Shown: positions 1 through 15,494, numbered from the stretch's first letter. The stretch is DNA of 20,754 nucleotides from Planctomycetota bacterium (GCA_045863855.1 BTVV01000109.1:1-20754); one strand, 5' to 3'. Notes: generated by a model from the letters alone, not told the origin. Made by a program: numbers and translations.

Positions 1-1621
1 CTGCATTCAGGTTGCCGACTTTGGTCGAACTGAGTACCGAGAGCGGCGCCTGCCCGTCCGCGACGGTGGACGCGAAGCGCACGGCCGATGCCGTCCCGTC
101 GCCGCTCACCACCAAGCGGTCTTCGCCGTTCTGCTGGAGTTGCAAAAGGGCGCCCGCTGCCGTCTTGTTGATGCGGATGCTCGGATGCGTCGTCGCGTCG
201 GTCTGCGCCGTGGCCGGTCCTTTCTGGACGTAGCTATTGGCGAGCGTCGTTCCGGCCTGCCCATCCAGTGTCAGCTCGTCGATGTGCTTCCATTCCGCGC
301 CGCCGTCCCCGTCGCTGGCCAGAACCCGGTCGGCCGAATGGCTTCCGCTGGCGACCTTTTCCTCGGTTACAGACTGATCCTTCAGGTGGTCGGTCCCCAC
401 CGCGCGAAGCGCGTCGTCGGTGGCGTGAGAAGCTAGCTTGGGGGACGTTACCGCGCCATCGGCGAGCTTCGGGGTGGTGACCGAGCCATCGGCCAAAGCT
501 GCGGTGGCTACGGCGTCGCCGGCCAGCTTGGCCGCCGTGACCGCCTGATCCGCCAGCTTCGCTTCGGTGACCGAGCCGTCAGAAAGCTTCGGTGTGGTAA
601 CCGAGCCGTTGGCCAAGGCCGCGGTGGCTACGGCGTCGCCGGCCAGCTTGGCCGCCGTGACCGCCTGATCCGCCAGCTTCGCTTCGGTGACCGAGCCGTC
701 AGAAAGCTTCGGTGTGGTAACCGAGCCGTTGGCCAAGGCCGCGGTGGCTACGGCGTCGCCGGCCAGTTTGGCCGCCGTGACCGCCTGATCCGCCAGCTTC
801 GCCTCGGAAACCGCTCCGTCGGCAAGCTTGGCCGAAGTCACGGCGTTGTCGGCCAGACTGGTGCTGCTCAGCGTGCCGAATCCGAGTGTGGGTCCGATTC
901 GTCGCAATACCGCGCCATCGGTCGAAGCCGCGATATCACCGGGTGAGCCGGCCGTATCGGCGGAGCGTCCCACTACGCTCAAGGCCGCGCTTGAGCGCAG
1001 CTTCGCATTCGAGACGCCTCCGTCTCTTACGCGCAGCGTATCTCCGGCGACTTCCAGCGTAGCGCTATCGGCGTTCACGGAGAGCGGTGTGCCGCCTCCC
1101 CCTGAAAGCCCGTCGCCCGCCGCCGAAGCATGAATCCGGCTCTCGTCCACGGAGCCAGCCGCGAGCTTGGGGGTCGTCACAGCGCCGTCAGCCAGCTTCG
1201 GAGTGGTAACAGATCCGTCGGCCAAGCCGGCAGATTGAATGTTCCCGATGCTGAAGCTGCCTGACTGACCCACCGCCTGGGTCGAAGCCGTAAGCGTGCC
1301 GCTGACCCGGATCGTGCACCGGCTGGATGAAATCGCGGGGACGGTCCAAGTTAGAGATTGGCGCTTCGTCTTGTCTACGTCGGATTTATGGATGGCGCCG
1401 ATATTCAACACTTGCTGGCCCGGCAGCCCTTGATCCACGATCAGTTGCACTTGGGTCAGTTTCGGTTGATTCTTTAGGCTGACGCGAACAACTTGGGACT
1501 GTCCTGGGACATACAGTTCGCCCCCGCGAGGCGCTTCAATCAGGAGTTCCTTGTCGGCACCCCAAGCGGAGACCGCTCCTAGCAGAAGGATTACCGCAAA
1601 TCGCAAAGCGTGGCGATGCAT
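1..1621 (-). CDS. Secreted fibre/adhesin-like repeat protein (tail-fibre-like, 10-aa repeats), partial: runs off the window start
   Basis: Not in the ORF track because it has no stop in the window. Manual translation from ATG 1621 is open for 540 codons: MHRHALRFAVILLLGAVSAWGADKELLIEAPRGGELYVPGQ (signal peptide), many LADG(S/A)VTxxKL-type repeats, ending FASTVADGQAPLSVLSSTKVGNLNA. RBS AGGAG at 1631-1635. Confidence 0.85.
   Translation of the reverse strand, partial: MHRHALRFAVILLLGAVSAWGADKELLIEAPRGGELYVPGQSQVVRVSLKNQPKLTQVQLIVDQGLPGQQVLNIGAIHKSDVDKTKRQSLTWTVPAISSSRCTIRVSGTLTASTQAVGQSGSFSIGNIQSAGLADGSVTTPKLADGAVTTPKLAAGSVDESRIHASAAGDGLSGGGGTPLSVNADSATLEVAGDTLRVRDGGVSNAKLRSSAALSVVGRSADTAGSPGDIAASTDGAVLRRIGPTLGFGTLSSTSLADNAVTSAKLADGAVSEAKLADQAVTAAKLAGDAVATAALANGSVTTPKLSDGSVTEAKLADQAVTAAKLAGDAVATAALANGSVTTPKLSDGSVTEAKLADQAVTAAKLAGDAVATAALADGSVTTPKLADGAVTSPKLASHATDDALRAVGTDHLKDQSVTEEKVASGSHSADRVLASDGDGGAEWKHIDELTLDGQAGTTLANSYVQKGPATAQTDATTHPSIRINKTAAGALLQLQQNGEDRLVVSGDGTASAVRFASTVADGQAPLSVLSSTKVGNLNA
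471..807. repeat. 120-bp tandem repeat (about 2.8 copies), each unit made of four 30-bp subunits
   Basis: 541-600 is identical to 661-720. 601-660 differs from 721-780 at one base. 481-540 is a slightly diverged copy. Each unit encodes a 40-aa block AKLADQAVTAAKLAGDAVATAALANGSVTTPKLSDGSVTE. Confidence 0.95.
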
Positions 1622-7205: not shown

Positions 7206-7273
7206 ATGCCTTCGCCCGCTGCGGAAGGCCTCTATAAACGAATCCGGAATCGGGCGAAGGGAGGGGCGGGCGC

Positions 7274-8053
7274 ATGGCCAAGAGCGAGACCGAAGCGGAA
7301 GAGGTCGGGACGCGAACCCTGCGGCCGGTCTACACCCGGATCATGCTGAAGCTCTCCGGCGAAATGCTGGGCGGGAGCAGCGGGCAGGGGCTGGATACCT
7401 CGCGATTGCAGGGTTTTTGCGAGCAGGTGCTGGACGTCTGCGCTCTCGGCGTTCAGGTGGCGATGGTGATCGGCGGCGGGAACGTGATCCGCGGCCAGCA
7501 GGCCAGCCAGGACTCGGGGCTGCTGCACCGCGCCACCGCCGACTACATGGGCATGCTCGCCACGATGATCAACGCGCTGGCTTTGCAGGACGCCCTGGAA
7601 AGCAAGGGTGGGAAGACGCGCGTGATGAGCGCGATCGAAGCGCGCGCGGTCTGCGAACCGTACATCCGCCGCCGCGCGCTGCGCCACCTCGAGAAGGGCC
7701 GCATTGTCATCCTCGCCGGCGGCACCGGGCATCCTTACTTCAGCACCGACACCACCGCGGCGCTGCGCGCGATGGAACTGAACAGCGAAGTATTGATGAA
7801 AGCGACGAAAGTCGACGGCGTCTACAGCGCCGACCCCAAAAAAGATCCCACGGCGGTCCGGCACAAGCGACTGAGCTACATGCAGGTGATCGAGCGGCGG
7901 CTGGGCGTGATGGATACGACGGCGATCAGCCTGTGCATGGACAATAAGCTGCCTATTCTCGTCTTTAGCCTCGAGACGACGGGGAATATCCTGCGCGCGG
8001 TGACGGGCGAAGCCGAATCGATCGGCACGCTGGTGGACGAGAAGGGCGCGTAA
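7274..8053 (+). CDS. pyrH: Uridylate kinase
   Basis: [68 protein letters not shown]; canonical position after tsf. Confidence 0.99.
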
Positions 8054-8073
8054 GTTCGGACTGGCCGGGGCTG

Positions 8074-8307
8074 CTAGGTGTCGAGCGTCTCTTCCGCCAA
8101 GCCGTGCATCCGCATCAGCAACTTCACGTCGTCGAGATCCAGATTGAAGCGCGGATCGAGCGCCATCGTCAGCAGCGCGCCGACGACGGCCGGCGCGTAG
8201 GCGAGTTCGTAGCGAAATCCGTAACGGTGCCCGGCTTTCACGTAGGTGATTTCGCGCATGGAGCGCGGCGCGGACGGCGGCGGTGTCGGGAAGCGCGGGG
8301 CGTTCAT
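8074..8307 (-). CDS. Small hypothetical protein (77 aa, or 61 aa from ATG 8259)
   Basis: Core REITYVKAGHRYGFRYELAYAPAVVGALLTMALDPRFNLDLDDVKLL looks like a real beta-beta-alpha-alpha protein. From memory it resembles small conserved planctomycete proteins (VKG-x-RYxFxY). Start codon uncertain. Confidence 0.7.
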   Translation of the reverse strand: MNAPRFPTPPPSAPRSMREITYVKAGHRYGFRYELAYAPAVVGALLTMALDPRFNLDLDDVKLLMRMHGLAEETLDT

Positions 8308-8338
8308 GCGGGCTCGCGGCCGAACGAGGCGAAGTTGT

Positions 8339-8395
8339 AGACAGGAGCCGGGACACCGTCCCCCCCACGGTGACGGCGCCCCGGGCGTCCTGTCT
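8339..8395 (-). other. Long imperfect hairpin upstream of the small gene
   Basis: Outer 8-bp stem AGACAGGA/TCCTGTCT plus a 13-bp inner stem whose two A-C mismatches become G-U pairs on the minus strand. Confidence 0.65.
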
Positions 8396-8609
8396 TCCCC
8401 CCTCCACGATGTTCGGAACCGTGGCGGTTGCGGCGATGACAGGACTTTCATCGTCCGTTCTGGTGCGCGGGCTCAAGCGAAATTTTTCAGACCACCCGCG
8501 GCCCCTGCGTGAGCCGAGTCTGCATCGGAGGTCCGCCTTGCGCCGCATGAGGTCTGACGAAGGTTTGGCGTTTGGGGTTTGCCGCTAGAGGTTCATGTCG
8601 CGCATCAGC

Positions 8610-8882
8610 CTAAATGCCGCGATTCCGGCGCTTGATCAATTCGTCGCGCGAGTGCTCGGGCTTCGCCGGCGCTTGCTCCGATCGCCGCGAGCGTTCCTGC
8701 CCCGTCCCGTCTTCGCCGCTGCGCTTGCGCAGCAACCACGCGCCGCCGCCGCCCGCCAGCGCCAGCAGCAAGCCCGCGCCGCCCCACACCGGATCGAGCC
8801 CCGTGACCAACGCCAGCACCACGCCGCCCGCGCAGAGCAGGATGCCCAGAAGCTGGCCGAGGCTCAGGAGCAGACCTTTCAT
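8610..8882 (-). CDS. Small membrane protein (2 TM helices, charged C-terminal tail), 90 aa
   Basis: RBS GGAG just upstream of ATG. Two hydrophobic segments are followed by RKR (positive-inside) and a hydrophilic tail. Confidence 0.75.
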   Translation of the reverse strand: MKGLLLSLGQLLGILLCAGGVVLALVTGLDPVWGGAGLLLALAGGGGAWLLRKRSGEDGTGQERSRRSEQAPAKPEHSRDELIKRRNRGI

Positions 8883-9079
8883 GGGACTCCGTTCGATAAC
8901 CTTCGGAAATCCAAACTACCCGGCGCGCGGCGAAATCCAAGAAGGAGCGGGTGGAACCGGCGTCCGGCCTTCGAACCCATGCGCCCGGCGCGTCCGAGCC
9001 TCGCCCTCGTAGGACGTTCGCGCCGCCCGAACCGGACTTCGAAATTCGCGCAAAGCGGCGCGCGGAGGCCATTCGTGGC

Positions 9080-9108
9080 TTGGCAGCACGCTCGCGATTC
9101 ACTATACC
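9080..9108 (+). promoter_or_regulatory. Possible promoter for the dehydrogenase gene
   Basis: TTGGCA-N17-TATACC about 130 nt upstream of ATG 9241; imperfect consensus. Confidence 0.35.
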
Positions 9109-9240
9109 AATGGGGTAACGGCTGCTTTGGCAGGGACCCGCGGACGCTGTGCGCGCTTTACCCCGCCGTCGACACTACCGCCGTCCGCGGTTCGCTCCCT
9201 GCGCCGTATCATTCACCCGTGTACGGAGCGACGCGGAACG

Positions 9241-12200
9241 ATGCCCGAAACCCAGACTTCCTCGCCCAGCGGCACGGTAGCGGCTTCGGATCCGGAGCTG
9301 AAACGCCGCCTCCTGCAGCTCATGCTCGCCACCCGGCTTAACGACGAAGCCGAACAGGTGCTCAAGCGCCGCGGGCAGGGCCACTTCCAGATGTCCAGCA
9401 TGGGGCACGAGGCCCTGGCCGGCATCGCGCTGGCCATGGACGAAGGGGACTGGCTGCACCCGCACTACCGCGACCGCGCGATCGTTCTGGGCCGCGGCGT
9501 GACGCACGAACAGATCTTCCTGGATTACTACGCCAAGCGCGATTCCTGCACCGGCGGGCGTCAGATGCCGGTCCACTTCAACTCGCGCCGCCACCGCATC
9601 GTCTCGCTCAGCAGCCCCGTCGCGACTAATTTTCTTCAAGCCGTCGGCATGGCGATGACGTTGAAAGAGCGCGGCATTCCGGAAGCCGTCGTCGCCACGA
9701 TCGGCGATGCGGCCACGCGCGAAGGCGAAGTCATGGAAGCGATCGCGCAGGCGGTTGTCGACGTCCTGCCGGTTCTGTTCCTGATCGAAGACAACCGCTA
9801 CGGGATCAGCACCGCCACCGAAGGGCGCACGTTTTGGACGATGCCCAAGAGCGTCGTGCGCGAGCCCGACGGGAGCGCGTGGTGGTTCGGCTGCCGGCTC
9901 GTCGAAGTGGACGGCCTCGATCCGGTCGCCGTGTACGCGGCCGCTTCGGCGGCATTGGCGCGCGGGCGAGCCGGAGAAGGCCCCACGATCCTCGTCGCCA
10001 AGCTCGAGCGGCTCGGAAGCCACTCCAGTTCGGACGACCAGCGCCTGTACCGCAGCGAAGAAGACCTCAAGGCCGCGCACGCGCGCGATCCGGTCAAACG
10101 CTTCGTCGAACGCTGCATTCACGAAAAGGTGCTTTCGGCCGCCGACGTGGAAGTCATGAAGGGCGAGATCAAGGAAGAGATCGAGGCGGCGCTGGCGCGC
10201 GCAAAGGCCGCGCCGGACCCCGATCCGGCCAGCGTCCGCGACAGTGCCTTCGCTCCGCTGCCTGACGATCTGCCCAATCAGGAAGTCGGTCTCCCGGCGC
10301 CGTTGGCCAAGCGCACCGGCGGGCAGACCATGGCGCAGTGCCTCGCGCAGGTTTTCGAACAGGAAATGCAGCGCAATCCGCGCGTGAACCTGTTTGGCGA
10401 GGACATTGAAGATCCCAAAGGCGACGTCTTCAGCATCACGCGCGGGCTCTCGTCGCGGTTCCCGGGCCGGGTGAGCAACTCGCCGCTGGCCGAGGCCACG
10501 ATCCTGGGTACCGCCGTCGGCCGCGCGATCCTCGGCGACGTCCCGGTCCCCTGCATCCAGTTCGTCGACTTCATCGGGCCCGGTCTGAACCAGCTCTTCA
10601 ATGAGGTGGTGACGATGTACTGGCGCAGCATGGGCCAATGGAACTGCCCGATGGTGGTGATGGCGCCCTACGGCGCCTACCTGCCGGGTCTGGGCGCGTG
10701 GCACAGCCAGACCAACGAGTCGATCTTCGCGCATATTCCCGGCCTGCATGTGGCGATTCCGTCGAATCCCGGCGACGCGGCGGGGCTGCTGCGCTACGCG
10801 CTGCGCTGCAACCGACCGGTCCTGTATCTGTATCCCAAGGCGCTGCTGCACGGCGCCGAAGAGACGGTCCAGAAACCGGGGCCGGAATGCCTGGTTCCGT
10901 TCGGGCGCGCGCGCGTCGTTCGGCCCGGGCGCGATTTGACGCTGGTGACGTGGGGCAACGGCGTGGCGATTTGCAAACAAGCCGCGCAGCGCGCCGCGCG
11001 CGAAGGCGTCGAGTCCGAAATCCTCGATCTGCGCACCATCGTGCCGTGGGACCGTGCAGCCGTGCTCGATTCGGTGATGCGCACCGGGCGGCTGATGGTC
11101 GTCCACGAAGACGCCAAGACTTGCGGGATGGCCGGCGAAGTGATCGCCGAAGTCGTCCAACACGCGTACGACCACCTGCTCGCGCCGCCCGTGCGGATCG
11201 TCAAGACCGACGACCACAACCCGTACCAGTTCGCGCTGGAACTCTCCATCCTGCCCAGCGTGGAAGGCGTTTACCGCGGCTTGAAAGAACTGGCCGCGCA
11301 GTCGCACCGCCCGGTGGACGCGGTAGCTCGTATTTCCGATTACGTCGCACCCGCACGCGGCATGGCTCCGGTGCCGCCGCTTAGCGCCGTGCCGCGCCCT
11401 CAATCGGCCGCGCCGGAAGCCGCGCCTGCCGCTCCGGCCGCGCGCGCCGCCGGACCGCAGCGCGTGCCTGTGGTCATTCCCAAACAGTCGCCTACCGACG
11501 AAGACGCCACCGTCGTGCGCATACTGGTCCAGCCCGGCGCGCAGGTGAAGGCCGGCGACCAGCTTGCCGAGATGGAAGCGAACAAGGGCTCTTTCGAGAT
11601 CGAAGCGCCCAACGACGGCACCGTGAGCGAGATCGTCGCGCGCGAGGGTCAGCGCGTGCGCGTCGAGACGCCGCTGCTGTTCCTCGAAGTCGCGGAAGGC
11701 GCGGAAGTGGACGTCAGTGGCGTGAGCGCCGATCGTCCGGGCGCTTCGGCGCTCCAGGAAGTTCGCCTCAGCCCCGCGCAGCTCCAGGTCGGCGCGCTGG
11801 CGCTCAAGAGCCAGCTCGAGATTCCCACCGTCAGTGTGGAGACCGAAGTGGACGTGACCGAGCTCTCCCGCCAGCGCGGGGAGTTCAAGCGCGAGATCCA
11901 GGAACGCCACGGAATCCACGTCACCTACACGCACCTGATTCTCTGGTCCGTCGTCCAGGCCATGCAGGAAGAAAGCTACAGCGGCTTCCGGGGTCGGCTC
12001 AACGCCACTGCCGACGCGCTCCTCGTCGATCCGCACGTACACGTCGCCTTCGCCGCCGAAGGGCATCACAACGATCTGTTCAATCCGTGCATTAAGAAGG
12101 CCGAACGCCTCAACTTCGTCGAACTTGTCCGCCGCGCAGGCGAACTGACCGAATCGGTGCGCAGCGGAAGCATTAACACGCTCGACCTGCAAGGCGCGAC

Positions 12201-12489
12201 CGTCACCTTGACCAACATCGGCGCGTTCGAAGCCACCGGCGGCACGCCGTTCGTAATACCGGGACAGGTGGCGATGGTCTGTGCGGGCTCGCTCCTTGAC
12301 CGCCCGCGCTATGTCGCCAACGGCAAATCGAAAGAACCGCAGCTTCAGCATCGCCGCGTGCTGCCCGTCAAACTGGTCTTCGACCACCGGCCCTTCAACG
12401 GCTCGCACGGCGCCGGTTTCCTTCGCGCGATCAAGCACAACCTCGAGACGATGAATCTGCGGGCCATTCTGGATGCCTGCAATACTTGA
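9241..12489 (+). CDS. Fused 2-oxoacid dehydrogenase E1alpha-E1beta-lipoyl-E2 acyltransferase (branched-chain/pyruvate type), 1082 aa
   Basis: E1alpha: GHEA, PHYRD, GRQMPVHF, ThDP motif GDAATREG...IEDNRYGIST, RLGSHSSSDDQRLYR. E1beta: FGEDI, SPLAE, IQFVDFI, GAWHSQ, DLRTIVPWD. Then an Ala/Pro linker, a lipoyl domain EMEANKGSFEIEAP, and E2 motifs TLTNIG and FDHRPFNG. Start ATG 9241 after GGAG. Confidence 0.93.
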   Translation: MPETQTSSPSGTVAASDPELKRRLLQLMLATRLNDEAEQVLKRRGQGHFQMSSMGHEALAGIALAMDEGDWLHPHYRDRAIVLGRGVTHEQIFLDYYAKRDSCTGGRQMPVHFNSRRHRIVSLSSPVATNFLQAVGMAMTLKERGIPEAVVATIGDAATREGEVMEAIAQAVVDVLPVLFLIEDNRYGISTATEGRTFWTMPKSVVREPDGSAWWFGCRLVEVDGLDPVAVYAAASAALARGRAGEGPTILVAKLERLGSHSSSDDQRLYRSEEDLKAAHARDPVKRFVERCIHEKVLSAADVEVMKGEIKEEIEAALARAKAAPDPDPASVRDSAFAPLPDDLPNQEVGLPAPLAKRTGGQTMAQCLAQVFEQEMQRNPRVNLFGEDIEDPKGDVFSITRGLSSRFPGRVSNSPLAEATILGTAVGRAILGDVPVPCIQFVDFIGPGLNQLFNEVVTMYWRSMGQWNCPMVVMAPYGAYLPGLGAWHSQTNESIFAHIPGLHVAIPSNPGDAAGLLRYALRCNRPVLYLYPKALLHGAEETVQKPGPECLVPFGRARVVRPGRDLTLVTWGNGVAICKQAAQRAAREGVESEILDLRTIVPWDRAAVLDSVMRTGRLMVVHEDAKTCGMAGEVIAEVVQHAYDHLLAPPVRIVKTDDHNPYQFALELSILPSVEGVYRGLKELAAQSHRPVDAVARISDYVAPARGMAPVPPLSAVPRPQSAAPEAAPAAPAARAAGPQRVPVVIPKQSPTDEDATVVRILVQPGAQVKAGDQLAEMEANKGSFEIEAPNDGTVSEIVAREGQRVRVETPLLFLEVAEGAEVDVSGVSADRPGASALQEVRLSPAQLQVGALALKSQLEIPTVSVETEVDVTELSRQRGEFKREIQERHGIHVTYTHLILWSVVQAMQEESYSGFRGRLNATADALLVDPHVHVAFAAEGHHNDLFNPCIKKAERLNFVELVRRAGELTESVRSGSINTLDLQGATVTLTNIGAFEATGGTPFVIPGQVAMVCAGSLLDRPRYVANGKSKEPQLQHRRVLPVKLVFDHRPFNGSHGAGFLRAIKHNLETMNLRAILDACNT

Positions 12490-12649
12490 CCGCTTGGCGG
12501 CGGCTGAGTTCCGTGTCCTGGACTTATAGCAGCAGATAAACCCTGCACAGCGTGCTTTAGCGGGGTATGAAAGAGTGGGCGCACGCCGTGCCTCAACTGG
12601 TGCAAAAGGGATTGCAAGTACAGGCGAGAAGTCTGGTTGAGCGCCTAAG

Positions 12650-12707: not shown

Positions 12708-15494
12708 ATGTCCGCACCGGCCCAACGCCCATCCGGCGAACAGCCCACCCGCACCATGCTGGGCGACTACGAACTCCTAAAGGAGATCGGGCGCGGTGGA
12801 ATGGGTTCGGTTTATCTGGCGACCCAGGTTTCGCTGGGCCGACCGGTGGCGGTCAAGATTCTCTCCAAGGATCTGGCCAAGAACGCCGACTTCGTTCAGC
12901 GCTTCTTCCGCGAAGCGCGCGCCGTCGCGCAACTCAATCATCCCAACCTGATCCAAGGCATCGCCGTCGGCGAGATCGAAGGGCAGTATTTCTTCGCCAT
13001 GGAATACGTGGACGGTCCGTCGGCGATGCAACGCCTGAAGGACATGGGTGGGAAGCTGCTGGAGGACGAAGCCCTCGATATCGCGATCCAAGTCGCGCGG
13101 GCGCTGGAACACGCGCACAAGCACGGCATGGTTCACCGCGACATCAAGCCCGACAACATTTTGCTCACCAACGACGGCACGGCCAAGCTCTGCGACCTGG
13201 GCCTCGCCAAGCTCACGCGAGCCGAGGACGCGGGACTCACGCAAGCCGGGCAAGCCGTCGGGACGCCGAATTACATTTCGCCCGAACAGGCGCGCGGCCG
13301 CACGGATGTCGATATTCGCAGCGATCTCTACAGTTTGGGCGCGACGACGTACCATCTGCTGGTGGGCGAACCGCCGTACACGGGCAACGCGGCGGCGGTG
13401 ATCATGACGCAGCACCTCGCCGAGCCGCCGCGCGACGCGCACGCGGCGAACCCCGACGTCTCCCCCGAATTCTCCGGCGTGCTTCTGCGCCTGATGCAGA
13501 AGAAGCCCGAGGACCGCTACGCGAGCCCCGCCGAACTGATCGCCGATCTCGAAGCGCTGAAGCGGGGTGAAGCGCCGGCGCGCGCGATGGCGAACCCCGA
13601 TGCCAACGGCAAAGCGGCCAAGCGCCCGCGCGCGGGACGTCCCGCCGGCATGGGCATGGGACGCCGCACGCCGGCGCGCGGGGAGCGCTCCACCGGTGGG
13701 GTGGTGCAGCGTTCGGGCGCGATCACCGGCTCCAAACTGGGCGAAGACCGCGGGACCGGACACCGCAGCGGCGCGGTCACGAGCTCCAAGCTCGCCGACG
13801 AACGTGGCGGTACGTCCAAGCATCCGCTCCGGGACGTCTCCACCGACGAAGCCAAGCCCGTTCGCGAACGCACGCGGCTGGCCACCACGCAGGTTCCTTC
13901 GCGCGGCGGGATGCCCATGATCGCCGTGGCGCTGGTGGTGCTCATCGCGGGCGCCGGCGCGGTCGTCTGGTTTACGCGCGAGACACCCGCTTCGAACAAG
14001 CCGAACACGAAGAACGCCGAGGCCGTCAAACCCGATCCGTCCGACCCGGTGAAAAACGACTCACAGGTTAATTCCGCACCGGTCGAACGTTCGGCCATCG
14101 CGCAAGGCACCACCTTTTTGGATGCTTCCGGCGCGGGGCAGTTGGGCTTTGCGCTGTGCCAGGTTAAAGTGCCCGGGGCGACCGGGGTCGCGGTCGGCGA
14201 TCTAGACGGCGACGGCAAGTCCGATCTCATCCTCGCCAGCTCCGCGCAGCCGGTGCAGGTCTTCCGGCATACCGGAGCGGCGGGCTTCGCGGAAGATGCC
14301 CGTACGCGCGGGCTGGAGCCGTTTTCCGGTCTGACGGCGCATTGGTGCGACATCAACGGCGACGGCGCGGGTGACCTTTCGTTCCTGACGGCCGACGGAC
14401 TGCGCACCTACCTGGGCCTGCCGGGCAAGCCAGGCGCGTTCGTCGAACGCGCACCGCAAGCTCGGCCGCGGTTCGTTCAGCCCCAAGGCTCGGCGTGGCT
14501 CGATTTTGACGCCGACGGGCGCCCCGATTTCCTCGCCGCCGGGCAGCAAGGACTCTTTCTGATCCGCAACGGCGCGCGCCAGCCTCAAGATGTCAGCCGC
14601 GAAACCGGGCTGGGCGGCGGCGGTCCCGGGCGCGGCGTAGGCGATTTCCTGATCACCCTCGACCTCGACGGCGACGCCTACGCCGATGCGATCTACAACA
14701 CCGGAGCACAGGGGGTGGTCCTCCATAACGAGGGTGGCAAAAAGTTCAAGGCGCTCGATTGCGGCATTAAATTCAAGTCCGAGGCCGCGTTCAAGGTGGG
14801 CCTTGCCGCGGGCGACCTGAACGGCGACGGAGCGGTGGATATCTTTGCGCCGCAGAACGGCCGGCCGTGCCTCTTCCTCAACGACGGCAGCGGTCGCTTC
14901 TCCGAAGCCCTGGATCATTCCGGGGACCTGGCGAAGCTTTCCGGTCCCGTGCGCGCCGCGGCCCTCGTCGATGTGGACCTCGACGGCGATCTGGATCTCA
15001 TCGCAGCGCTCGCCGCCGAAGTCCGGCTCTACCTCAACGACGGCCCTGCGCGATTCCGGGACGCGTCCGCCTCGATTCTGAAAGATTTGCGCAAGCGCGC
15101 CAACGTCAGCTACGTCGCCGTCCTCGACGCCAATGCCGACCGCGTGCCTGACCTCTTCTTCTACGCCGAAAACGCGCCCAGCGCGCTCTTGCTCAACGAA
15201 CTCAAGCCGGGGGCGAAAGCCGCGCCGCTCGTCGTTGCCTTCCCGCCGGGGGGCCATCCGACGCCGTTGGGCGCACGGGTGGAAGTCGCTGATGCGTGGG
15301 GGCGCAAGCAGACGCAGTGGGTCAGTGGAGCCGACGGGCGCGGCGGGCAAGCCGGCGCGGAACTCTACTTCGGAGTCGTCGCCGAGAAAGCCAAGGTGAA
15401 GGTGGTCTATGCGGGAGGCAAGCGCAGCGCCGAGATGGTCGCGAACGTCTCCGCGCTCGAAGGCGCACGCGTGCTCGTAGCTCCGCCTAAGTAA
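12708..15494 (+). CDS. Membrane Hanks-type Ser/Thr protein kinase with extracytoplasmic FG-GAP/VCBS beta-propeller and ASPIC/UnbV-like C-terminus
   Basis: Kinase motifs IGRGGMGSV, VAVK, HRDIKPDN, DLG, GTPNYISPE, DLYSLG. One TM helix IAVALVVLIAGAGAVVWF. Seven DxDxDGxxD-type repeats. C-terminal PLGARVEV...GADGRGGQ...LYFGV. Confidence 0.93.
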   Translation: MSAPAQRPSGEQPTRTMLGDYELLKEIGRGGMGSVYLATQVSLGRPVAVKILSKDLAKNADFVQRFFREARAVAQLNHPNLIQGIAVGEIEGQYFFAMEYVDGPSAMQRLKDMGGKLLEDEALDIAIQVARALEHAHKHGMVHRDIKPDNILLTNDGTAKLCDLGLAKLTRAEDAGLTQAGQAVGTPNYISPEQARGRTDVDIRSDLYSLGATTYHLLVGEPPYTGNAAAVIMTQHLAEPPRDAHAANPDVSPEFSGVLLRLMQKKPEDRYASPAELIADLEALKRGEAPARAMANPDANGKAAKRPRAGRPAGMGMGRRTPARGERSTGGVVQRSGAITGSKLGEDRGTGHRSGAVTSSKLADERGGTSKHPLRDVSTDEAKPVRERTRLATTQVPSRGGMPMIAVALVVLIAGAGAVVWFTRETPASNKPNTKNAEAVKPDPSDPVKNDSQVNSAPVERSAIAQGTTFLDASGAGQLGFALCQVKVPGATGVAVGDLDGDGKSDLILASSAQPVQVFRHTGAAGFAEDARTRGLEPFSGLTAHWCDINGDGAGDLSFLTADGLRTYLGLPGKPGAFVERAPQARPRFVQPQGSAWLDFDADGRPDFLAAGQQGLFLIRNGARQPQDVSRETGLGGGGPGRGVGDFLITLDLDGDAYADAIYNTGAQGVVLHNEGGKKFKALDCGIKFKSEAAFKVGLAAGDLNGDGAVDIFAPQNGRPCLFLNDGSGRFSEALDHSGDLAKLSGPVRAAALVDVDLDGDLDLIAALAAEVRLYLNDGPARFRDASASILKDLRKRANVSYVAVLDANADRVPDLFFYAENAPSALLLNELKPGAKAAPLVVAFPPGGHPTPLGARVEVADAWGRKQTQWVSGADGRGGQAGAELYFGVVAEKAKVKVVYAGGKRSAEMVANVSALEGARVLVAPPK

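Follow-up and report, generated by a model that had tools for sequence, protein, structure and literature searches.

A single gene in the 20,754-nucleotide stretch BTVV01000109.1:1-20754 of a Planctomycetota bacterium (GCA_045863855.1; the whole stretch is referred to here as the window) encodes a polypeptide that carries the E1 alpha subunit, the E1 beta subunit, the lipoyl arm and the E2 acyltransferase of a 2-oxoacid dehydrogenase complex. These activities normally reside on three separate proteins. The frame is open on the plus strand over 9127..12489 (1120 amino acids in the list of open reading frames, ORFs), and translation from its first ATG, at 9241, gives a product of 1082 amino acids that is letter-identical to database protein P0002. 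Five Pfam domains follow one another along this uninterrupted frame in the order claimed by a sequence-only reading of the DNA, with boundaries that agree within ~30 nucleotides with those it had proposed, and the Ala/Pro linker it had pointed out corresponds to residues 691-737, which are indeed rich in Ala (16/47) and Pro (10/47) and disordered in an AlphaFold2 model. Neither the length nor the sequence of this linker is conserved in an alignment of fused proteins. The model, built with 63 homologues, has a mean predicted local distance difference test score (pLDDT) of 85.3, and the E1, lipoyl and catalytic domains are confidently placed; the disordered parts are residues 1-12, 691-737 and 828-836, together with the short internal loops 482-485 and 858-860. 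The E2 domain ends in a non-canonical C-terminal tail, LETMNLRAILDACNT, and no domain of ketoacyl synthase III (KAS III; PF08545/PF08541) was detected by Pfam in the 1082-residue protein.

The fusion is real, and the frame recurs well outside the window. One stop-free frame encodes the whole protein in 13 of 17 members of the window's family, its own genome (G000; 6.9 Mb, 94% complete) included, and two of these genomes are assemblies of 6 and 8 contigs. Two other members (G009 and G016) have the gene interrupted by contig ends, and one genome of a second family, among the 41 related genomes examined, also has an intact single frame, at 48% identity. All five domains are present in 108 of the 120 best database matches, the remaining 12 being truncated records, E1alpha-beta-only proteins or KAS III variants. 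At the DNA level, an independent contig (run X3, record 16) spans 9592-12600, including both linkers, with 0 differences and 0 gaps. Two metatranscriptome libraries add gap-free contigs over 9137-12597, with 167 differences, and over 9802-12268, with 114. The four public runs compared list not a single indel, and 36 of the 40 listed differences from a 95%-identical relative (128 further differences lie beyond those listed) fall on third codon positions. Dips in contig coverage in runs X3 and X4 carry no meaning, and a 160-base skip joint at 9524-9685 was disregarded, its source being an unrelated 3-kb contig with 21-base sides.

The sequence-only reading had named a stop or frameshift in the linkers as its refuter; none is present in the independent contig or in the 13 family genomes, with genome G004, discussed below, as the exception. 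Such a gene could nonetheless be mimicked by a mis-assembly, by a chance-open GC-rich frame, or by adjacent E1 and E2 genes whose separating stop or frameshift was lost through a sequencing error. The window belongs to a metagenome-assembled genome (MAG) of 287 contigs, high-GC DNA yields long spurious frames (an antisense ORF of 1087 amino acids overlies the same stretch), the G004 frame is broken in linker 1, and genuine two-gene versions are present in other lineages. Against this stand the same frame in the family genomes, few-contig assemblies included, and in a second family, five-domain matches from many independent sources, an independent DNA contig identical over both linkers, and related-strain differences that fall on third codon positions. 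An artefact has only a vanishing probability on this evidence, and we regard it as refuted for practical purposes.

The catalytic residues of all modules could be placed on the frame (Table 1), and their conservation was scored in a set of 63 fused sequences with 35-70% identity to the window protein. The thiamine diphosphate (ThDP)/Mg motif and H261 would have the roles that they have in E1 structures; E418 is presumably the conserved Glu that activates ThDP, and we take H1049 to be the catalytic His and T991 the Ser/Thr of the xx(S/T)NxG motif. In the AlphaFold2 model, strands 774-780 and 783-788 flank a turn that holds the lipoyl-lysine, K782, in agreement with the flattened beta-barrel of lipoyl domains, which has its modified lysine at a hairpin tip. 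The motif around it is EMEANKG in the planctomycete-type fusions and the canonical EVETDKA in the verrucomicrobial type. We consider it likely that the fused E1-lipoyl-E2 gene encodes a functional 2-oxoacid dehydrogenase that works with a separate dihydrolipoyl dehydrogenase (E3).

Table 1. Modules, linkers and catalytic residues of the fused gene (positions in nucleotides, counted from the first base of the window)
Feature	Position	Strand	Remarks
Whole gene	9241..12489	+	1082 amino acids + stop; E1alpha-E1beta-linker-lipoyl domain-linker-E2 catalytic domain; ORF list, translation
E1 alpha module, E1_dh residues 27-329	9319..10227	+	Pfam PF00676, E 1e-57
ThDP/Mg motif G155-D156-A157...N185	codons 9706-9708, 9793-9795	+	G155, N185 invariant; D156, A157 at least 90% (63 sequences); codons confirmed
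H261 in loop SHSSSDD	10021-10023	+	invariant in 63 fused sequences
E1 beta module (Transket_pyr + Transketolase_C)	10327..11268	+	Pfam
Transket_pyr, residues 363-536	10327-10848	+	Pfam PF02779, E 1.6e-26
E418 in PLAE motif	10492-10494	+	invariant in 63 fused sequences
Transketolase_C, residues 555-676	10903-11268	+	Pfam PF02780, E 1.9e-29
Linker 1, residues 691-737, Ala/Pro-rich	11311..11451	+	joins E1 to lipoyl domain; pLDDT <50
Lipoyl domain, residues 740-817 (Biotin_lipoyl 745-813, nt 11473-11679)	11458..11691	+	Pfam PF00364, E 1e-14
Lipoyl-lysine K782 in EMEANKG	codon 11584-11586	+	AAG, codon confirmed; invariant in 63 fused sequences
Linker 2, residues 818-838, short	11692..11754	+	low pLDDT 828-836; site of the peripheral subunit-binding domain in ordinary E2s
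E2 acyltransferase catalytic domain, residues 839-1082 (2-oxoacid_dh 840-1072, nt 11758-12456)	11755..12486	+	Pfam PF00198, E 6.8e-40
T991 in TLTNIG	12211-12213	+	Ser/Thr of xx(S/T)NxG
H1049 in DHRPFNG	12385-12387	+	D1048, H1049, R1050, N1053, G1054 invariant (63 fused sequences)

The 2-oxoacid dehydrogenase complexes are textbook cases of giant multienzyme machines: 24 or 60 E2 subunits form the core, and a small peripheral subunit-binding domain (PSBD) serves as the docking site for E1 and E3. In the mechanism we propose for the fused enzyme, two chains would pair through their E1 modules into the equivalent of an alpha2beta2 ThDP enzyme with active sites at the subunit interfaces, as expected from homology to heterotetrameric E1s. 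The E1 module would decarboxylate a 2-oxoacid and reductively acylate the lipoyl group on K782, held on a 47-residue disordered tether, and the lipoyl domain would then swing on the second linker of ~20 residues to an E2 catalytic trimer (H1049, T991, N1053), where the acyl group would pass to CoA. A homotrimer of catalytic domains is expected from homology. The arm would be reoxidised by a separately encoded dihydrolipoyl dehydrogenase which, as the protein has no PSBD, would have to make transient contact or bind by a different route. The covalent attachment of E1 may have made the PSBD dispensable, and would set the E1:E2 ratio at 1:1.

As to the substrate, for which the signals conflict, we give aliphatic or branched-chain 2-oxoacids an even chance; pyruvate is a considerably less probable candidate, and some other substrate is rated no higher than pyruvate. 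When ranked against solved structures, the E1 part scores highest with the branched-chain E1s of Thermus and Pseudomonas, albeit with a slight preference; the best solved relatives are 1um9_B of Thermus thermophilus for E1 beta (236 bits) and 1um9_A for E1 alpha (149 bits). Two further hints favour aliphatic or branched-chain 2-oxoacids, namely that the other E1alpha-beta of the genome is the PDH-like (pyruvate dehydrogenase-like) one, and that a sister clade joins the E1-lipoyl unit to a fatty-acid starter enzyme.

The fused protein appears to have dispensed with two structural elements of the classical complexes. No match to the E3_binding/PSBD family (PF02817) was found in it by Pfam (E up to 0.01), and the AlphaFold2 model leaves only ~20 residues between the lipoyl and catalytic domains. 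In two-gene relatives, where an E1alpha-beta gene is followed by an E2 gene (L082:3938-7130, L079:3686-7238, L047:792-4222), the E2 has a PSBD-like stretch (IPPRTRKYL...), uncalled by Pfam, at the position of the fused protein's alignment gap; this E2 lacks a terminal helix altogether, its chain stopping just past the final helix of the core. Loss of the PSBD seems to accompany fusion. The second element is the C-terminal hydrophobic 3-10 helix (ExPxxLLL), which joins E2 trimers into 24- or 60-mers. In a comparison of sequences, its Pro, at His+22, is present in 0 of 108 fused tails versus 18 of 19 ordinary E2s taken from carriers and related genomes, and a double hydrophobic comes just after that position in 15 of the 19. 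With the canonical inter-trimer knob absent, the core may be small.

The closest solved catalytic domains are those of Mycobacterium tuberculosis (9y6t, 90 bits) and Corynebacterium glutamicum (6zzi, 84 bits), followed by Azotobacter vinelandii (78 bits) and Escherichia coli (68 bits), and in the HMMER alignment the tail LETMNLRA aligns without gaps to LETANFEG of C. glutamicum. This C. glutamicum stretch contains a three-residue insertion that is reported to fold the terminal helix back on its own subunit, which blocks trimer-trimer contacts and keeps the protein a trimer (10.1101/2020.07.24.212647; PMC12995895). The alignment is suggestive of a similarly folded-back helix in the fusion, but is not proof of it. 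As E1 is two-fold and the catalytic domain three-fold symmetric, one E1 of every trimer lacks a partner within it, which calls for links between trimers; with the long disordered linkers, the clash of symmetries is not a rigid constraint. The predicted outcome would be a hexamer as in the actinobacterial OdhA fusion, a larger closed core or an open network. Our interpretation is least certain where it proposes a small core, with E1 dimers cross-linking the trimers into, for example, a hexamer and not a 24- or 60-mer; we put this at somewhat under an even chance. The unusual assembly foreseen in the sequence-only reading is plausible, supported as it is by the absent PSBD and the systematically different E2 tail.

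Several observations weigh against the interpretation of the gene as a one-chain, branched-chain-type (EC 1.2.4.4 / 2.3.1.168) dehydrogenase with a small core. The gene was not found in one family member (G008, 83% complete), and in G004 the frame breaks within linker 1 (contig C124, L143:2200-2450), the lipoyl-E2 part running on in another frame with its own possible GTG start. In the sister genome of G004, G012, the gene is intact; the break may be a real split or a MAG error, and a split form may be viable. Contigs from RNA libraries are no proof of transcription. The lipoyl motif of the window protein is ANKG, not the usual DKA of the canonical (E)TDKA, which is typical for lipoyl domains but not strictly required. 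The E2 domain is nearer to the acetyltransferases (E2p) than to the branched-chain E2b, which pulls towards pyruvate, and none of the NCBIfam equivalogs reaches its cut-off, the best being PDH-named models below threshold. A double hydrophobic near the end is kept in 35 of the 108 fused tails. In four Verrucomicrobiota carriers, moreover, the fusion coexists with three ordinary E2 genes per genome, so that it is not needed there as pyruvate, 2-oxoglutarate or branched-chain 2-oxoacid dehydrogenase (PDH, OGDH or BCKDH) and may have a different role; in these bacteria it is not simply a compacted housekeeping complex.

As in ordinary complexes, the genes for E3 and for lipoylation are encoded apart from the fusion. 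A dihydrolipoyl dehydrogenase elsewhere in G000 scores 482 bits with TIGR01350 (cut-off 409). A second, partial one (Lpd) on contig C286 (1575 bases; L005:24-698 and 691-1575, minus strand) ends at the contig end and is directly followed by a lipoyl ligase/transferase-domain gene, one of three LplA/LipB catalytic-domain genes in the genome; lipA is also present (346 bits, cut-off 310). The fusion contains the sole PF00198 (E2 catalytic) domain of G000, as it does in G002 (8 contigs, 94% complete), G004 and G012, and other members of the family also have ordinary E2 operons. A search of the G000 genome returned no aceE. The genome does encode three 2-oxoacid:ferredoxin oxidoreductases (alpha-type genes), and oxidation of pyruvate and 2-oxoglutarate therefore need not rely on the fusion. 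It further encodes a second, highly divergent fused E1alpha-beta of 672 amino acids (contig C8; L002:415-2433, minus strand), which is PDH-like and exceeds the PRK09212 cut-off (362 vs 321 bits), and an orphan lipoyl-PSBD protein of 166 amino acids with a TDKA motif and no catalytic domain (contig C37:36465-36962; L015:1495-1995, plus strand). The gene for the latter adjoins acpS and a panE-like gene, and its small frame is retained by all members of the family (17 of 17) as well as by 10 other genomes of the class.

The fusion is not restricted to the window's relatives. Its presence in Planctomycetota and Verrucomicrobiota bears out the guess, made in the sequence-only reading, of other carriers in the Planctomycetes-Verrucomicrobia-Chlamydiae group. 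Among the best 120 matches, the five-domain architecture is found in many Planctomycetota MAGs at 52-71% identity, and a second subtype, with 35-38% identity, occurs in Verrucomicrobiota (Opitutaceae, Chthoniobacterales/'Spartobacteria', Ca. Udaeobacter and Verrucomicrobiae); a partial Leptospiraceae record is also among the matches. The protein P0049 of Anaeramoeba ignava (1204 amino acids, on a 284,621-base contig) is a eukaryotic version of the fused enzyme, extended at the N-terminus and equipped with two lipoyl domains. Its place in the E1 tree, inside the planctomycete clade, suggests that an anaerobic protist received the gene by transfer. When 301 Planctomycetota genomes were sampled evenly, only the window's family showed the full fusion (7 of 7, counting G000), the other long open frames being E1alpha-beta alone or KAS III fusions; the counts from this sample are a lower bound because a stricter first look was used.

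An E1 tree of 28 rows, made by a quick method, contains three groups: E1alpha-beta-only proteins, the verrucomicrobial fused type, and the planctomycete fused type together with E1alpha-beta-lipoyl-KAS III proteins (support 98). The KAS III fusions were found among the matches (P0065, P0067, P0071) and in two Planctomycetota genomes, and have in common with the planctomycete-type fusions the signature VP(K/R)xxP(T/S)DE at the N-terminus of the lipoyl domain. The grouping and the common signature indicate that the C-terminal acceptor module has been exchanged in the history of the family. L047, L048, L079 and L082 were considered as full-length fusions and rejected, each of them being two adjacent genes. 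Leads to other, uncharacterised E1-E2 fusions came from the Protein Atlas, namely proteins of ~686 amino acids with Transket_pyr, Transketolase_C and 2-oxoacid_dh in Actinomycetota, and of ~774 amino acids with Transket_pyr, lipoyl and 2-oxoacid_dh domains in Pseudomonadota.

The role of the enzyme may be read in other ways. As the only E2 core of the cell, the fusion could also serve the PDH-like 672-residue E1alpha-beta, which would dock on the orphan 166-residue lipoyl-PSBD protein; once acylated, the arm of the latter would act in trans and pass its acyl group to the catalytic domain of the fusion. The result would be a hybrid complex like the actinobacterial supercomplex of pyruvate and 2-oxoglutarate dehydrogenases (PDH/ODH). 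G000 and G002 each combine two E1s with a single PF00198 domain, the stand-alone lipoyl-PSBD protein with its TDKA motif exists and is kept throughout the family, and OdhA provides a precedent for a lipoyl arm acting in trans. However, a pair of 672-residue-type E1alpha-beta and lipoyl-PSBD protein is also present in four genomes of two other families (G022, G024, G026 and G028; 77-87% complete), in which no PF00198 domain was found, meaning that the pair does not need the fusion's core, and ordinary E2 operons are present too in other members of the window's family. We consider such sharing of the core unlikely.

A dedicated biosynthetic function, in which the enzyme would supply short or branched acyl-CoA starters for lipid or secondary metabolites and not act in catabolism, is likewise improbable. 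The fusion would then be the CoA-releasing counterpart of the E1-lipoyl-KAS III fusions, in keeping with their well-supported grouping with the planctomycete-type fusions in the E1 tree and the lipoyl-domain signature common to both, and the three ordinary E2s of the Verrucomicrobiota carriers leave room for a specialised fourth system. Yet no lipid or polyketide genes adjoin the fusion at the 20 loci examined, and its position as the sole E2 in G000 fits a general role better. In a more far-reaching proposal, possible but doubtful, the gene would belong to a modular 'lipoyl-arm assembly line' family, in which an E1alpha-beta-lipoyl cassette is combined with exchangeable acceptors (E2 core or KAS III) and the fusion is the CoA-releasing member. 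Its product, having lost the PSBD as well as the inter-trimer knob, would form a small dehydrogenase particle of a new type and of strict 1:1 stoichiometry and recruit E3 independently of a PSBD, for example as a D3 hexamer of two E2 trimers and three bridging E1 dimers or as an open E1-cross-linked network; and, with the whole E1-E2 function in one gene, it would move easily between lineages, Anaeramoeba included.

The architecture is a variant of a known enzyme system, not new chemistry. In its ThDP E1 alpha/beta, its lipoyl domain and its CAT-like E2 with the motif DHR..(D/N)G, the fusion resembles the heterotetrameric-E1 BCKDH and Gram-positive-type PDH complexes, for which solved examples include T. 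thermophilus E1b (1um9), Pseudomonas putida (2bp7) and Geobacillus PDH (1w85/3duf). It is unlike ordinary complexes in that one gene replaces three, the PSBD and the ExPxxLLL knob are missing, and E1:E2 is fixed at 1:1. The PRK11892-type E1 beta, exemplified by Zymomonas mobilis PDH, also bears a lipoyl domain covalently on an E1 subunit, and PRK11892 is the best NCBIfam match of the beta part (264 bits, cut-off 454). In this type, however, the lipoyl domain precedes beta at the N-terminus, alpha forms a protein of its own, and a normal E2 has its own lipoyl domains, PSBD and core. The KAS III (FabH) fusions have the same E1alpha-beta-linker-lipoyl front end as the window protein and end in a ketosynthase, which cannot release acyl-CoA, whereas the window protein ends in a complete E2 catalytic domain.

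Among solved catalytic domains, the closest belong to the reduced-core actinobacterial E2p enzymes (the C. glutamicum AceF trimer and the M. tuberculosis DlaT hexamer). Unlike the fusion, these enzymes are free-standing, have lipoyl domains and a PSBD, and work with a homodimeric E1p partner; the fusion tail has Leu where they have a conserved Phe. The other actinobacterial parallel, OdhA/KGD, is reported to have the order E2o-E1o, no lipoyl domain, a lipoyl-lysine taken in trans from E2p and an 800 kDa homohexameric structure (10.1101/2023.02.23.529587), in agreement with the opposite order and missing lipoyl domain that the sequence-only reading had cited when setting the two fusions apart. 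Like the window protein, OdhA has E1 and E2 activities on one chain, and its hexamer reconciles a three-fold E2 with a two-fold E1 and so sets a precedent for the assembly proposed for the fusion. OdhA differs in having a homodimeric SucA-type E1 and rigidly joined domains, in place of the alpha/beta E1 and long disordered linkers of the fusion, and its catalytic domain scores only 53 bits against that of the fusion.

Full-text literature searches, with subscription-only papers and InterPro/CDART outside their scope, returned no description of an E1alpha-beta-lipoyl-E2 fusion. The names under which such proteins appear in databases, 'thiamine pyrophosphate-dependent enzyme', '2-oxo acid dehydrogenase subunit E2' and '2-oxoisovalerate dehydrogenase E1 component', are all automatic, and metabolic reconstructions that depend on them may miscount the capacity to form acyl-CoA. 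To our knowledge, the only studied exceptions to the giant-core plan are those of the Actinobacteria, namely the OdhA fusion and an E2p that forms trimers or hexamers. The family described here would be a second, independent departure, with a tethered E1, no docking domain, an altered core tail and a fixed stoichiometry, and would test how much of the classical architecture substrate channelling needs. It is widespread in abundant, poorly cultured bacteria of soil and water (Chthoniobacterales/Udaeobacter-type Verrucomicrobiota and Planctomycetota). A one-gene E1-E2 would also be a compact part for engineering, and the kinship with the KAS III fusions suggests that modules are swapped naturally on the lipoyl arm.

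The neighbours of the fused gene in the window are groES/groEL, a gene for a leucine-rich repeat protein, rpsB, tsf, an unknown gene and a Ser/Thr kinase gene, none of them functionally linked to it. More generally, no E3, lipoate or pathway gene is conserved beside the fusion among 66 flanking ORFs at 20 loci from two phyla. Two ORFs on the upstream side, at 7232-8548 (minus strand, 438 amino acids) and 8595-9341 (plus strand, 248 amino acids), have no Pfam family; the latter, whose last 101 bases are shared with the beginning of the fused gene, is perhaps no genuine gene. Directly downstream, at 12708-15494 (plus strand), lies the gene for a Ser/Thr protein kinase of 928 amino acids that is fused to FG-GAP/ASPIC repeats. 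At the 20 loci, a divergent aspartokinase is encoded upstream of the fused gene in seven, all from Verrucomicrobiota (L058, L062, L063, L084, L098, L100, L104), and a PALP enzyme in four (L063, L098, L101, L104), likewise only in Verrucomicrobiota and three of them also with the aspartokinase. This recurrence is probably plain synteny.

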